Source: Acidobacteriota bacterium (GTDB lineage: Bacteria; Acidobacteriota; Blastocatellia; Pyrinomonadales; Pyrinomonadaceae). Taken from it: a DNA stretch of 64,000 nt. The notes under the pieces were generated by a model that was given only the letters and a program-made list of their open reading frames with translations, searched no databases and was not told where the DNA came from. Positions within the stretch are counted from its first letter, which is position 1. Each line of letters opens with the position of its first letter. The position numbers and the translations under genes are program-made. Shown here in pieces: positions 4,980 to 42,794 of this stretch. Where the stretch lies: positions 4,202 to 68,201 of the forward strand of contig JBKPAC010000100.1 of NCBI GenBank assembly GCA_046726175.1, read 5' to 3'.

Positions 4980-5870
4980 TCATGACCAACTGACCAGGTA
5001 CTCGCGTAACGTGCCATACAGCGAGGCGAATGAGTCGGCGCAGAAGAGCACCGGTTGATAGTGTGTCGGGTCGTACTGTCGCGCTATCACGGCGTCAATA
5101 TCTAACGGACGCAGCTCGGCTGCCCCCATCTCTTCGAGTTCTCCTGCCGACGAGAGAAGCCCAGTTCCATAAGCCTTAACCGCATCGCCCTCGAGCAACA
5201 CACCAAACTCAATGGTGAACCAGTAGAGACGTGACAACAGCAACAGACGATCGGCAGATGACGTACGCTTCACGGCTTCACCAAACAGTCGATTGAGCTC
5301 GGCCAGAGGTTCGCTTGCCAGAGTCACGGCATGCCCGATGATCTCGTGGGCCACATCCGGTTCGGGGGTATACAACGGAGTCGAGTGGTGGCGAATGTAC
5401 TGAGTGCAGAGAAACACACCGTTCGCCAGGTTCTCGAGAAACACTCGCGGCTCGACCAGTCCTGCGACAGGCTCAAGCCGAAAGCCGCTGATGGCTTCGA
5501 CTCGTTTGCTTACTTCCCGCAACTGCGGGATCCGTTCGGTGTCGAAATCCAAACGATTCAAGGACGCCAGGTATTCTGCGCAGGCGTGTCGAGCATGTGC
5601 CGGCTTGAGTGCTTTCCAGATCGCGCTCCATACCTGATGTTCTTCCTCACTGTAAGGCGCATCCGGAATTGGTTGCCCGGGTCGATAGCCGAGTGCAATC
5701 TTCGCGATGCGATTACGTCGCCGGCGGTACTCGGGATCTCGAAAGCCCGGATGATCCGGATCCAACTGAACGATGTTATTTCTATCTGCGATCAGCTCAT
5801 CTTCCTCAACGCCGACCATTCGCATATCCACGTGGTCAATAAGTGGCGATTGTTCTACCTGGGTTTCCAT
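4980..5870 (-). CDS. phhA: Phenylalanine 4-hydroxylase (biopterin-dependent aromatic amino acid hydroxylase)
   Basis: 296 aa. DPEYRRRRNRIA, PEPDVAHEIIGH and GLLSSxGE-type segments are typical of PhhA. Confidence 0.85.
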   Translation of the reverse strand: METQVEQSPLIDHVDMRMVGVEEDELIADRNNIVQLDPDHPGFRDPEYRRRRNRIAKIALGYRPGQPIPDAPYSEEEHQVWSAIWKALKPAHARHACAEYLASLNRLDFDTERIPQLREVSKRVEAISGFRLEPVAGLVEPRVFLENLANGVFLCTQYIRHHSTPLYTPEPDVAHEIIGHAVTLASEPLAELNRLFGEAVKRTSSADRLLLLSRLYWFTIEFGVLLEGDAVKAYGTGLLSSAGELEEMGAAELRPLDIDAVIARQYDPTHYQPVLFCADSFASLYGTLREYLVSWS

Positions 5871-5905
5871 GATTCACGCCTTTCAAAGTAGATTTTTTAA
5901 AAACC

Positions 5906-5952
5906 AAAAAAACCGGCCACCCATCCTTCCTACTGGAAGGACCGGTGGCCGG
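5906..5952 (-). terminator. Intrinsic terminator (18-position stem plus U7) 35 nt upstream of the phhA start; proposed conditional terminator of an attenuator
   Basis: On the minus strand, CCGGCCACCGGUCCUUCC-AGUA-GGAAGGAUGGGUGGCCGG is followed by UUUUUUU. The stem has 1 mismatch and 1 G:U pair. Confidence 0.8.
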
Positions 5953-5974
5953 CTTTTGGAAATTGTCTTTAGCG

Positions 5975-6076
5975 CTAAGTGGTCATCGCGCAGTGACAAG
6001 CCATCGCCCGACCGTCCCTCCAGCAGGAGAGCGGACCGTAATAATAGTAGCGATAGCTGTTGCGCTGTCTGACCAT
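5975..6076 (-). CDS. Candidate leader peptide MVRQRNSYRYYYYGPLSCWRDGRAMACHCAMTT (Tyr-codon run)
   Basis: ATG at 6076 and TAG at 5977-5975. Codons 8-13 read TAT CGC TAC TAT TAT TAC. The other two frames across the run have no start codon. No clear Shine-Dalgarno precedes the ATG. Confidence 0.5.
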   Translation of the reverse strand: MVRQRNSYRYYYYGPLSCWRDGRAMACHCAMTT

Positions 6077-6107
6077 CGTTTAAGAGGGCAACTGCCCTAC
6101 GCGGCTA

Positions 6108-6137
6108 AGAATAGTCAGGTGTGGTTGAATCAGTCAA
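6108..6137 (-). promoter_or_regulatory. Sigma70-like promoter TTGACT-18 nt-TATTCT driving the leader/phhA transcript
   Basis: On the minus strand the -35 TTGACT is at 6137-6132 and the -10 TATTCT is at 6113-6108, with an 18-nt spacer. It lies about 30 nt upstream of the leader ATG. Confidence 0.5.
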
Positions 6138-6143
6138 GGCGAG

Positions 6144-6221
6144 GGGAGCGCGGGCGTCTCGCCCGCCGGGAAGATTATAGGTCATAGGGATCCAGGAGCC
6201 GGCCGAGACGCCCGCGCTCCC
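6144..6221. repeat. Inverted-repeat hairpin, GGGAGCGCGGGCGTCTCGCCCGC family (copy 1)
   Basis: gggagcgcgggcgtctcg (6144-6161) is mirrored by cgagacgcccgcgctccc (6204-6221). It lies just downstream of the LigD-Pol gene stop. Confidence 0.85.
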
Positions 6222-6226
6222 AGTGA

Positions 6227-7231
6227 TTACGGTAACTTTAACGTCTGGCGCGCTGAGAAGAATTCGGACCAGCGATTACCGTTTTTCGCCAGTATGGACG
6301 GCACATTCTCAAGTGTGAAGTCTGTAATCTTGACCCCTCGTTCCACTTGTTTCCAGGTCAGCGGCATCGAAACAGTTGCCTTTGGTTTTGCTCGTACTGT
6401 GAGGACCGACGCCAGACTCTTTCCGCGCGCATTTTGCATGGAATCAACGTAGACCTGCGTCGGTTTACGTTTTGCTATCGATCGTTCGACCGTGGCGATC
6501 TGCGGAGCTCTTCTGGCGACTTCTCCGGCAAGCATCCTGGCGAACTCAGCAACCTTGTCGTATTCGTTTTTTGGGTTCAACGGCACGTAGATGTGCATAC
6601 CCGAAGAGCCCGACGTTTTTGGAAAGACCTGCAACCCGATCTCGTCACAGACCTCTTTTACTACCAGTGCGACCTGGAGCACATTTTCCCAGGGAGCTTT
6701 CTTCGGATCGAGATCGATGGCAATCCAATCAGGCTTGTCGAGACGCTTGATTGTGGAATGCCAAGGGTGTTGCTCGATTGATCCAAGATTAACAAAGTGC
6801 AGCAGTGAACCGGTGGTTGTATAGACCGCGTAATCAAGTTCTCGTCCTTCCTGGTTCGTTAGCCTCACAGTTTTTATAAAGGCCGGTGCACTTTCCAGGT
6901 CCTGTTGAAAGAACATCGGCGCCTTGATCCCTCTGGGCCAGCGCTGCAGGATTGCCGGCCGATCCTTTAGAAACGGCATGATGTGATCGCTTACGAGGAG
7001 GTAGTAGCAAAGAAGATCGAACTTTGTAAGCTTCTCGTCCGGCCAATAGATCCGATCCAGACTCGTTAACGATACCGACTCTCCTTCGACGTGAAGAATA
7101 AGATCGCCTTTTGGTTTCTTTAACGCGAGAAACTCTTCGACCGAGATCTCGGGACCCTTCTTCTGGGGTGTGCGCTTGACAGCGGAAGTCTTTTGCAGGT
7201 TTTTTGTGCTGCGAGTTGCCATAAGTGTCAT
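6227..7231 (-). CDS. DNA ligase D polymerase (primase-polymerase) domain protein, stand-alone
   Basis: DKPDWIAIDLDP and SGSSGMHIYVPL motifs are typical of the LigD PolDom/AEP fold. At about 334 aa it has no ligase or nuclease domain. An alternative start is ATG 7222. Confidence 0.75.
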   Translation of the reverse strand: MTLMATRSTKNLQKTSAVKRTPQKKGPEISVEEFLALKKPKGDLILHVEGESVSLTSLDRIYWPDEKLTKFDLLCYYLLVSDHIMPFLKDRPAILQRWPRGIKAPMFFQQDLESAPAFIKTVRLTNQEGRELDYAVYTTTGSLLHFVNLGSIEQHPWHSTIKRLDKPDWIAIDLDPKKAPWENVLQVALVVKEVCDEIGLQVFPKTSGSSGMHIYVPLNPKNEYDKVAEFARMLAGEVARRAPQIATVERSIAKRKPTQVYVDSMQNARGKSLASVLTVRAKPKATVSMPLTWKQVERGVKITDFTLENVPSILAKNGNRWSEFFSARQTLKLP

Positions 7232-32122: not shown

Positions 32123-32193
32123 ACTGGGAGCGCGGGCGTCTCGCCCGCCTATGCTATTCAAGATCAACGAAGCGGGCGAAACGCCCTCCCAGC
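32123..32193. repeat. Hairpin, GGGAGCGCGGGCGTCTCGCCCGC family (copy 2)
   Basis: actgggagcgcgggcgtctcgcccgc ... gcgggcgaaacgccctcccagc. Confidence 0.8.
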
Positions 32194-42668: not shown

Positions 42669-42727
42669 GCAAACGTTATTTGACCATACATGCCGCACCC
42701 GAGCGAGCATTTCGTTTACTGGGAGCG

Positions 42728-42794
42728 CGGGCGTCTCGCCCGCATCACCTTCAGTATCAGAGACTAAGCAGGCAAGACGCCCGCGCTCAGTGAC
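42728..42794. repeat. Hairpin, GGGAGCGCGGGCGTCTCGCCCGC family (copy 3)
   Basis: tactgggagcgcgggcgtctcgcccgc ... caagacgcccgcgctcagtga. Confidence 0.8.

Follow-up and report, generated by a model that had tools for sequence, protein, structure and literature searches.

A candidate tyrosine-sensing leader-peptide attenuator upstream of the phenylalanine 4-hydroxylase gene phhA in Acidobacteriota

The transcription attenuators of enterobacterial amino acid operons (trpL-trpEDCBA, pheL-pheA, pheM-pheST, hisL, leuL, thrL and ivbL/ilvL) combine a promoter-proximal mini-ORF carrying tandem codons of the sensed amino acid with an RNA that can form a 1:2 hairpin, a 2:3 antiterminator and a 3:4 intrinsic terminator, whose U-tract closely precedes the structural gene; they sense the amino acid that their target gene produces. 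Here we describe an element that shares all of these properties, found upstream of phhA in a 64-kb stretch of Acidobacteriota DNA (the window, meaning the whole stretch that was analysed). The phhA element differs from the enterobacterial attenuators in what it would sense, tyrosine, in its targets, phhA or tyrA-aroF, and in its phylum, and it matches none of the Rfam leader families in sequence or structure. Its layout is different as well: the leader ORF extends across region 2 and its stop codon falls within the antiterminator loop, whereas enterobacterial leaders stop between regions 1 and 2, and many copies are nearly leaderless and have no Shine-Dalgarno sequence.

A Tyr codon also occurs in the aroR leader upstream of aroF (DAHP synthase) in Corynebacterium glutamicum, which reads Phe-Tyr-Phe; according to the summary of Neshat et al. 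(2014) in PMC11802643, this leader responds to Phe limitation and Tyr availability has no effect. Thus aroR and the phhA element are both ribosome-mediated attenuators of an aromatic-pathway gene with a Tyr codon in the leader, but aroR has a single Tyr between two Phe and the phhA element 3-5 consecutive Tyr codons, with no sequence relationship between them; the related leader closest to aroR in logic is the FYYYF leader of a tyrA-aroF locus (L206). Control of phhA itself is described in Proteobacteria, where a DNA-binding protein encoded beside the gene, either the sigma-54 activator PhhR/TyrR or a divergent Lrp/AsnC-type regulator, induces phhA for Phe/Tyr catabolism (PMC1173090). The gene is the same, but there the control is catabolic and exerted by protein, whereas here it is RNA-based and would switch on at tyrosine scarcity, an anabolic logic. 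T-boxes need no translation: with a specifier codon and the T-box sequence they recognise uncharged tRNA directly. The Tyr-specific T-boxes of Firmicutes (for example that of tyrS) resemble the phhA element in depending on tRNA-Tyr charging and on competition between terminator and antiterminator; unlike them, the element contains a conserved ORF, whose translation we infer, and has no Rfam T-box match. Tyrosine control is usually ascribed to TyrR-type proteins or to T-boxes. The initial annotation of this DNA knew of no Tyr-codon leader controlling phhA, and our literature searches likewise returned no description of leaders with Tyr codons, of attenuators for phhA or of leader peptides in Acidobacteria, nor did we find an Rfam family. 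Leader-peptide attenuation is itself known; it is the amino-acid specificity, the target genes and the phylum that appear to be undescribed, as does RNA-based control of phenylalanine hydroxylase of any sort. In Acidobacteriota, predicted attenuators are almost without assigned function (PMC2965389).

All features discussed here lie on the minus strand. The putative regulated gene, phhA (4980..5870), encodes a phenylalanine 4-hydroxylase of 296 aa (Pfam Biopterin_H, E = 7.3e-79); an identical protein bears the source name phenylalanine-4-hydroxylase, and the motif AAAGG stands about 9 nt before the phhA ATG (5870). Transcription would start from a sigma-70-type promoter (6108..6137) with TTGACT at 6137-6132, an 18-nt spacer and TATTCT at 6113-6108, which had been read from the sequence in the initial annotation and which a consensus scan also picks up; it is also kept in the closest relative, L214. 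Downstream of the -10 box and ahead of the leader ATG, folding predicts a small 5'-UTR hairpin, GGGCA-GU-UGCCC (6086..6097), which is not universal, being absent from L214; in the alignment, the longer UTRs of many relatives contain comparable short GC-rich hairpins. The leader ORF (5975..6076) spans 33 codons from ATG at 6076 to TAG at 5977-5975 and encodes MVRQRNSYRYYYYGPLSCWRDGRAMACHCAMTT. An earlier start is ruled out by an in-frame TAA 6 nt ahead of this ATG. Within the ORF, the codons TAT CGC TAC TAT TAT TAC (6038..6055) place five Tyr in six positions, four of them consecutive, and neither strand of the 64-kb window has another run of at least four TAY codons. Both the mini-ORF and its Tyr run had been proposed before, and we read them at exactly those positions. 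The accompanying caveat, that no Shine-Dalgarno sequence precedes the leader ATG, stands for the minus-strand sequence of the window. In 17 related loci the -10 box is only 8-15 nt from the leader ATG, so that their transcripts would be nearly leaderless.

Three structures are predicted from the leader RNA. The 1:2 hairpin, or anti-antiterminator (5988..6065; -39.4 kcal/mol, z = -3.2), has an apical stem of 6034-6026 with 6021-6012 and a basal stem of 6065-6049 with 6014-5988, and the Tyr codons sit within its internal loop. Its apical stem is the proposed pairing of region 1, CCGCUCUCC (6034-6026), with region 2, GGAGGG.CGG (6021-6012), and this pairing is present in the minimum-free-energy fold. 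The 5' arm of the apical stem begins 3 nt past the last Tyr codon (6034 versus 6038; 0-5 nt in relatives), and a ribosome that stalled at the Tyr codons would have region 1 within its footprint. The antiterminator 2:3 (5931..6025) pairs 6025-6008 with 5952-5931, the latter being the terminator 5' arm, and adds inner helices of 6003-5995 with 5967-5957, holding the leader stop codon in its apical loop; at -43.6 kcal/mol (z = -4.1) it is matched in stability by 0 of 200 shuffles. The alternative pairing suggested earlier, of CUGGAGGGACGGU with ACCGGUCCUUCCAG (5946-5933), is thus possible, and the structure is longer than was then described. The intrinsic terminator 3:4 (5906..5957) lies about 22 nt past the leader stop codon and consists of a stem (5953-5913) with one internal mismatch, the loop AGUA and U7 at 5912-5906; including an A/U extension, the hairpin reaches -41.8 kcal/mol (z = -8.5). 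Stem and U-run had both been called correctly, as had the 35 nt that separate the U-run from the phhA ATG. The terminator is a near-perfect palindrome. A cmscan of 5600-6500 against Rfam at E up to 10 returns no known leader family, T-box or other riboswitch and only unrelated matches at chance level, the best being STnc400, a generic hairpin, with 28 bits against a gathering score of 80.

From these parts the following mechanism can be proposed, in which leader translation, ribosome stalling, the kinetic competition of the structures and the physiological response are all inferred and have no experimental evidence. RNA polymerase would transcribe from the TTGACT/TATTCT promoter and a ribosome would translate the 33-codon leader. 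When Tyr-tRNA is plentiful, the ribosome would pass the Tyr codons and regions 1 and 2 to reach the stop codon inside the would-be antiterminator loop; region 2 would then lie under the ribosome or pair with region 1 again, the terminator would form, and RNA polymerase would halt at U7, 35 nt before phhA. When Tyr-tRNA is scarce, the ribosome would stall in the Tyr run with its footprint over region 1, and the freed G-rich region 2 could capture the pyrimidine-rich terminator 5' arm once it is transcribed, blocking the terminator and allowing transcription of phhA, whose product would then turn phenylalanine into tyrosine. With region 1 masked, the full-length minimum-free-energy fold keeps the terminator, and therefore anti-termination would have to be kinetic. 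The same is true of the E. coli trp attenuator.

How widely is this arrangement kept? We compare loci of related phhA orthologues (63-91% protein identity), using an nhmmer sequence profile and pair counts as the measures of conservation. Among 80 related genome loci (Pyrinomonadaceae/Blastocatellia), the profile finds one element apiece in 70, in each case just ahead of phhA; 7 of the 77 loci that have enough upstream sequence are without it. It also matches 94 of 120 metagenome loci that fit the search pattern, 90 of these 94 being followed by phhA, and altogether the whole element is kept in more than 150 distinct sequences. The PhhA protein search listed the best 120 hits, all with at least 73% identity, and the range of the element outside Blastocatellia is not covered. 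The gene upstream of the element differs among loci, so the element goes with phhA and not with whichever gene precedes it. Of 64 aligned relatives, 63 have a TTGACn-N17/18-TAnnnT site no more than 110 nt ahead of the leader ATG. Leader ORFs of 27-37 codons with start and stop positions kept are present in 63 genome loci plus the window and in about 90 metagenome loci, the ATG standing 5-11 codons ahead of the Tyr run. This run has five TAY codons in 35 loci, four in 18 and three in 11. Across 550 kb of related loci, runs of at least four TAY codons are confined to the equivalent phhA leaders; none of these loci carries a second copy of the element, and neither does the window. All relatives have the hairpin CCGGCCAY...RTGGCCGG followed by a U-tract, with energies from -21 to -39 kcal/mol. 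The initial annotation had suggested looking upstream of phhA orthologues for a Tyr-rich mini-ORF with a terminator; both turn out to be conserved, together with the 1:2 hairpin and the 2:3 pairing. Such conservation across aligned sequences speaks strongly against chance.

The individual helices are supported to different degrees. Run on the plain MAFFT alignment, RNAalifold recovers only the terminator and three apical pairs, and we therefore take the consensus helices from per-sequence constrained folds. On this basis the terminator is 91% paired with compensatory changes at 13 of 20 pairs, the apical 1:2 stem 84% paired with compensatory changes at 10 of 11 pairs (64 sequences), and the whole OFF structure 88.5% paired (150 sequences). 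Counted by cell, the OFF state is 85-88% paired, with 160-250 compensatory cells versus 61-127 in controls. For the antiterminator (the ON state), pairing is 83% versus 35-58% with the partner slid, with 82 compensatory cells versus 30-41. Covariation is thus strong for the terminator and the 1:2 hairpin and modest for the antiterminator, though the pairing of the latter is conserved. When the Tyr-run footprint is masked and the terminator 3' arm omitted, most relatives fold into the same three-helix antiterminator. An RNAduplex comparison of own versus mismatched partners detects no co-evolution of region 2 with the terminator arm (-19.2 versus -18.8 kcal/mol); the 2:3 pairing rests on conserved purine-rich and pyrimidine-rich segments. 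One subgroup, with CAAUCC-type terminators, has a weak 2:3 duplex of -13 to -17 kcal/mol.

We now consider the codons themselves. In the Tyr codons, T and A are invariant and the third base alone varies, TAT and TAC being used 140 times each. Structure does not account for the conservation of these codons, which vary only synonymously and occupy an unpaired internal loop, and the clustered Tyr codons appear from the alignment to be under selection as codons. Past the Tyr run, the peptide is not conserved as protein and tracks the RNA helices. Where trpE lies directly downstream of phhA, a Trp codon stands right behind the Tyr run in 9 of 13 cases versus 0 of 114 elsewhere (Fisher p = 4e-11). 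Furthermore, tyrA-DAHP synthase operons are preceded by homologous leaders reading YYRYY, YYYCYY and FYYYF (profile E-values 1e-12 to 4e-18), the last of these in L206, and a pheA...tyrA operon is preceded by a Phe/Tyr-rich leader and then a terminator. We regard the Trp-codon/trpE association and the tyrA leaders as two natural experiments that support codon-specific sensing. The regulated genes fit this picture, as they supply the sensed amino acid: phhA makes Tyr from Phe, and W or F codons go with trpE or with pheA/aroF. The comparative tests that could have refuted an attenuator all come out in its favour. What we observe is the sequence elements and their geometry, how they are conserved and covary, and that they accompany genes for Tyr (and Trp or Phe) biosynthesis. 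On this basis we give a probability of roughly 0.85 to the reading that the phhA element acts as a ribosome-mediated attenuator of transcription, using a leader peptide to sense charged tRNA-Tyr and so control how much transcription reads through into phhA. The initial annotation's proposal of a Tyr-sensing attenuator is to this extent supported, by comparative evidence only: the conserved parts, the synonymous TAT/TAC exchanges, the Trp codon with trpE and the tyrA leaders. With rather less assurance, though we think it the better bet, we extend the idea to a family of aromatic-amino-acid attenuators, at least in Blastocatellia, built on one RNA scaffold whose specificity is reprogrammed by the leader codons: YYYYY for phhA alone, YYYW/YYYWW for phhA-trpE, YYRYY/FYYYF for tyrA-aroF and an F/Y mix for pheA-tyrA.

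A conserved RNA could also be switched by a trans-acting factor, such as a TRAP/PyrR-type Tyr-binding protein, uncharged tRNA as in a T-box or a small ligand, leaving the ORF incidental. The strong sequence conservation of the RNA structure and the lack of a Shine-Dalgarno sequence in the window leader would suit such a factor, and a terminator/antiterminator switch works with any factor that stabilises one fold. It is difficult, however, to see why an incidental ORF would keep its start codon, reading frame and stop codon in more than 150 sequences, why its Tyr codons would change only synonymously in an unpaired internal loop, or why its codons would match the operon, W appearing where trpE is present and F where tyrA-aroF or pheA is; the Rfam search at E up to 10 also gives no T-box or other riboswitch match. 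We consider a trans-acting factor unlikely.

The ORF might instead matter for its product, a functional small Tyr-rich peptide (for instance a precursor or substrate linked to the hydroxylase), next to an ordinary, partly leaky terminator. The ORF is indeed conserved, it adjoins an aromatic amino acid hydroxylase gene, and automatic gene calls exist, one by the JGI gene caller for the equivalent ORF in L214 and another for a different short ORF in L209. Yet outside the Tyr run the peptide accepts non-conservative changes wherever the RNA helices change (GRDGQAMGC, RRGEAAMGC, QEERHGESC, GGTVRRWAV), all three codon positions are constrained within helices, relatives retain the alternative pairing with the terminator arm, and the scaffold also precedes tyrA, which is not a hydroxylase, all of which leaves a functional peptide very unlikely. 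Finally, the dispersed palindromic repeat at 6144-6221 and the near-palindromic terminator could suggest a mobile palindromic element, or a chance ORF beside the terminator of the upstream LigD-like gene. This explanation we can practically discard, as the conservation data already contradict it: there is one element per locus, which invariably precedes phhA or tyrA regardless of which gene lies upstream and how that gene is oriented, with its own conserved promoter and no second copy in the window.

If the attenuator reading holds, PhhA makes tyrosine in these bacteria, and an enzyme induced by tyrosine starvation would be an anabolic Phe-to-Tyr enzyme in Pyrinomonadaceae, not a catabolic one. 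Phenylalanine hydroxylase is already known as a route of tyrosine biosynthesis in some bacteria (PMC7311316). It need not be the only route here, since MAGs of Pyrinomonadaceae and Blastocatellia have annotated proteins of the TyrA family; for the same reason, a view of PhhA as the sole Tyr route in Pyrinomonadaceae is unsupported. The element would then be the first tyrosine-specific leader-peptide attenuator, filling in a missing amino acid in the list, and would provide a clean natural series in which leader codons track operon content, an extension of the mechanism to Acidobacteriota and many copies translated from nearly leaderless transcripts. As the arrangement is kept in well over a hundred related soil Acidobacteria, it would also affect the inference of amino-acid pathways and auxotrophy from soil metagenomes. 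The element is easy to annotate, and doing so would clear many "hypothetical 33-aa protein" calls.

Turning to the surroundings of phhA, the genes next to it in the window encode a LigD primase-polymerase and an outer-membrane receptor, and neither is a regulator; the absence of an adjacent phhB, raised as a caveat in the initial annotation, does not bear on the RNA switch. The dispersed palindromic repeat lies just upstream of the element. In loci without the leader, phhA is found directly behind trpA, trpG or DAHP synthase genes.

All of the parts that the initial annotation had listed for a tyrosine-sensing attenuator are present within 270 nt upstream of the start of phhA (phenylalanine 4-hydroxylase), on the minus strand. 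Sequence reading and a consensus scan give a promoter with TTGACT (6137-6132) and TATTCT (6113-6108) separated by an 18-nt spacer, followed by a leader ORF of 33 codons (MVRQRNSYRYYYYGPLSCWRDGRAMACHCAMTT; ATG at 6076, TAG at 5977-5975) that has an in-frame TAA 6 nt upstream of its ATG and carries the codons TAT CGC TAC TAT TAT TAC at 6055-6038. The Tyr codons lie in an internal loop of a long imperfect hairpin between regions 1 and 2 (6065-5988; apical stem CCGCUCUCC/GGAGGG.CGG). Further on, a near-perfect terminator hairpin of regions 3 and 4 (5953-5913) runs into U7 (5912-5906), 35 nt before the phhA ATG at 5870, and the phhA product matches Pfam Biopterin_H (7e-79). Folded separately, the 1:2 hairpin reaches -39.4 kcal/mol (z = -3.2), the terminator -41.8 kcal/mol (z = -8.5) and an alternative structure at 6025-5931 -43.6 kcal/mol (z = -4.1, none of 200 shuffles being as stable); the latter joins 6025-6008 to the terminator's 5' arm (5952-5931) and 6003-5995 to 5967-5957.

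In the proposed mechanism, a ribosome short of Tyr-tRNA would stall in the Tyr run and cover region 1, which starts 3 nt downstream; region 2 would then pair with the emerging region 3, no terminator would form and phhA would be transcribed, and the PhhA made would convert Phe to Tyr. When Tyr-tRNA is replete, the ribosome would pass regions 1 and 2 and reach the leader stop codon, which falls about 22 nt short of the terminator, in what would be the antiterminator loop. Region 2 would be occupied or re-paired with region 1, 3:4 would form and transcription would end at the U-tract. If the leader went untranslated, both 1:2 and 3:4 would form and termination would again be expected. Strong comparative evidence supports this reading of the element as a Tyr-sensing leader-peptide attenuator, as originally proposed, and we put its probability at roughly 0.85; that evidence is comparative only, with no experiment, and the mechanism is inferred.

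Conservation upstream of phhA in relatives had been named as a check on the proposal, and it is borne out. Querying a genome collection with the PhhA protein gave 80 loci (PhhA identity 63-75%), all from Pyrinomonadaceae/Blastocatellia (Acidobacteriota) MAGs, and in about 65 of them a mini-ORF with a YYYY(Y) run precedes phhA. The element's sequence profile matches 70 of the 80 loci, with a single match in each that is invariably directly 5' of phhA; three of the ten loci without a match have insufficient upstream sequence. Scanning metagenomes for three TAY codons, a spacer and terminator arms returned at least 120 loci, among which at least 94 are true family members, and at least 90 of the members listed have phhA within 400 nt on the same strand. 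In the window and 550 kb of loci, these leaders are the only places, on either strand, where at least four TAY codons follow one another. The closest relative among the matches listed, L214 (PhhA identity 84%), has the same synteny as the window (LigD Prim-Pol, 33-aa ORF, phhA, TonB-like outer-membrane protein) and differs from it in loops. Upstream of the element, other loci carry a different gene or one on the opposite strand, which argues that the element belongs to phhA. The 33-aa leader ORF of L214 (1304-1405) already stands in public gene calls as a hypothetical, unannotated gene, as does another short ORF (L209:2385-2504); where appropriate, genes of this kind could be relabelled as leader peptides.

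The individual parts are equally constant. In 63 of 64 sequences a TTGACn-N17/18-TAnnnT promoter is located no more than 110 nt from the leader ATG, with the -10 box 8-59 nt from the ATG; in 17 loci this distance is at most 15 nt, so that the leader mRNA is nearly leaderless, which accounts for the general lack of a Shine-Dalgarno sequence before the leader. Leader ORFs span 27-37 codons (median 32) and hold 3-7 Tyr in total, with consecutive TAY runs of five in 35 sequences, four in 18 and three in 11. Their Tyr codons are unpaired in the folds, use TAT and TAC 140:140, and have invariant T and A positions in the alignment. Variation at the third base only marks selection that acts on the identity of the codons and not on RNA pairing. 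Conservation 3' of the Tyr run is confined to the RNA helices, and the peptide changes non-conservatively with helix changes (for example GPLSTGRDGQAMGC, GSLSARRGEAAMGC, WCSPQEERHGESC). Every sequence has a CCGGCCAY...RTGGCCGG terminator hairpin with a U-tract (-21 to -39 kcal/mol), 77-95 nt past the Tyr run and 19-41 nt past the leader stop codon. The window also has a small GC hairpin (6097-6086, minus strand) in the stretch from the -10 box to the leader ATG. Many relatives have one where the 5' UTR is longer, and it is missing from L214 and the nearly leaderless group; it may stabilise the 5' end, its function being otherwise undetermined.

Covariation was counted as compensatory cells. 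For the OFF state (1:2 hairpin plus terminator), 85.4% of cells are paired in 64 sequences versus 80.2% after shuffling, with 160 compensatory cells versus 61 in the control (0 of 500 shuffles as high); in 150 distinct sequences the values are 88.5% versus 34-55% with the 3' partner slid, and 250 versus 71-127. The three-part antiterminator of the ON state was taken from per-sequence folds with the footprint of a ribosome stalled on the Tyr run forced unpaired and the terminator 3' arm omitted. Here 82.9% of cells are paired versus 37-56% slid, with 28 compensatory cells versus 14 shuffled (64 sequences), and 83.2% versus 35-58%, with 82 versus 30-41 (150 distinct sequences); on these counts the antiterminator covariation is real but modest. 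Region 2 showed no co-evolution with the terminator arm, own pairs scoring -19.2 and mismatched pairs -18.8 kcal/mol. The 2:3 pairing depends on two conserved segments, one rich in purines (region 2, GGAGGGACGGUC...GGGCUGUC) and one rich in pyrimidines (region 3, GACAAGUUUCC...ACCGGCCAYCnnUCCUUCC). Because the full-length minimum-free-energy fold keeps the terminator even with region 1 masked, anti-termination would have to be kinetic, as in the E. coli trp attenuator.

The codons of the leader also follow the content of the operon, which is evidence that they themselves are sensed. In five related loci (L010, L015, L018, L019, L027), trpE, encoding anthranilate synthase component I (Pfam Chorismate_bind and Anth_synt_I_N), lies directly 3' of phhA on the same strand, and exactly these have a Trp codon directly after the Tyr run (YSYYYW, YYYYW, YAYYW); L033 also has trpE, with its leader cut off. 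Some leaders carry YYYWW. Among all loci whose sequence extends 500 nt or more beyond phhA, the Trp codon follows the run in 9 of 13 with trpE versus 0 of 114 without (Fisher p = 4e-11, which overstates the independence of cases, the loci being related to one another). A subgroup of other loci (L002, L035, L057, L086) carries Trp, and in some cases Cys as well, within the run (YYWYY, YYWCY, YYWYW, YYYWYY) and has no adjacent trpE. These remain unexplained and could reflect drift through TGY/TGG or Trp sensing for genes elsewhere.

Similar leaders precede other genes of the pathway. One metagenome member (L090:3231-3384, minus strand; leader MMNRNTSRYYYCYYRPLF...) precedes not phhA but a tyrA-type gene for a bifunctional chorismate mutase-prephenate dehydrogenase (CM_2, PDH_N, PDH_C), followed by DAHP synthase. 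Tracing TyrA homologues to their contigs uncovered leaders not used in building the profile, before tyrA-DAHP synthase in three further settings (profile E-values 4e-18 to 8e-13): L201-L203 (L201:2829-2981; core ...NRYYRYYRPLF...), L204/L205 (L204:2832-2984; ...SYRYYRYYRPLF...) and a Pyrinomonadaceae MAG (L206:1519-1681; ...PHFYYYFVSF...). At L209:654-870 a mini-ORF (...RFYYLAFMYCFSF...) with hairpin and terminator lies upstream of pheA (CM-PDT)...tyrA-DAHP synthase. Codon types in these tyrA/pheA-operon leaders are YYYCYY, YYRYY, FYYYF and mixed F/Y; other tyrA genes, inside aroA-tyrA-aroF or pheA-tyrA clusters, have no leader directly in front. Together, the phhA leaders and the homologous or analogous tyrA/pheA leaders form a putative wider aromatic-amino-acid attenuator family in Acidobacteriota.

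Where the leader is missing (seven loci), the gene directly before phhA is often one of aromatic biosynthesis on the same strand: trpA (L065:2164-2946), a trpA-like gene (L059, by sequence inspection only), a GATase/trpG-type gene (L056:2285-2845) or a DAHP synthase gene (L037:1071-2099), none with a Tyr leader. This placement behind trp-operon or DAHP synthase genes points to a predicted anabolic role for PhhA in Blastocatellia. PhhA need not be the sole route to Tyr and may serve as a second or back-up one, since annotated TyrA-family proteins also occur in MAGs of Pyrinomonadaceae and Blastocatellia.

Membership of the T-box class or of any Rfam leader family can be ruled out, as Rfam release 15 holds no family matching the element region at E-values up to 10. 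In its logic and its parts the element instead matches the classical leader-peptide attenuators (trp, phe, his, leu, thr and ilv), and it shows each of their defining features that is open to testing in silico. A full-text literature search found no Tyr-codon leader, phhA attenuator or characterised Acidobacteria leader peptide; subscription journals were mostly uncovered, and an earlier description is not excluded. The nearest described case is aroR of C. glutamicum, a Phe-Tyr-Phe leader upstream of aroF that responds to Phe and not Tyr (PMC11802643). So far, the control described for phhA is exerted by proteins (PhhR/TyrR and AsnC-type regulators) and serves catabolism (PMC1173090). What is new within the known mechanism is the Tyr specificity, the phhA and tyrA targets, the occurrence in Acidobacteriota and the often nearly leaderless transcripts.

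Between the stop of the LigD-like gene and the leader promoter, the window carries an 18-bp perfect inverted repeat (GGGAGCGCGGGCGTCTCG ... CGAGACGCCCGCGCTCCC; 6144-6221), and the same 18-mer recurs at 32126-32143 and 42721-42790 (5 matches versus 0.17 expected). It looks like a putative dispersed palindromic element of REP or MITE type. In several related loci (L001, L005, L023) a long palindromic insert (GGAGTGCGCTGRCTTGWCAGCGC ... GCGCACTCC) between attenuator terminator and phhA start, probably another mobile palindromic element, stretches the spacer to 130-185 nt.
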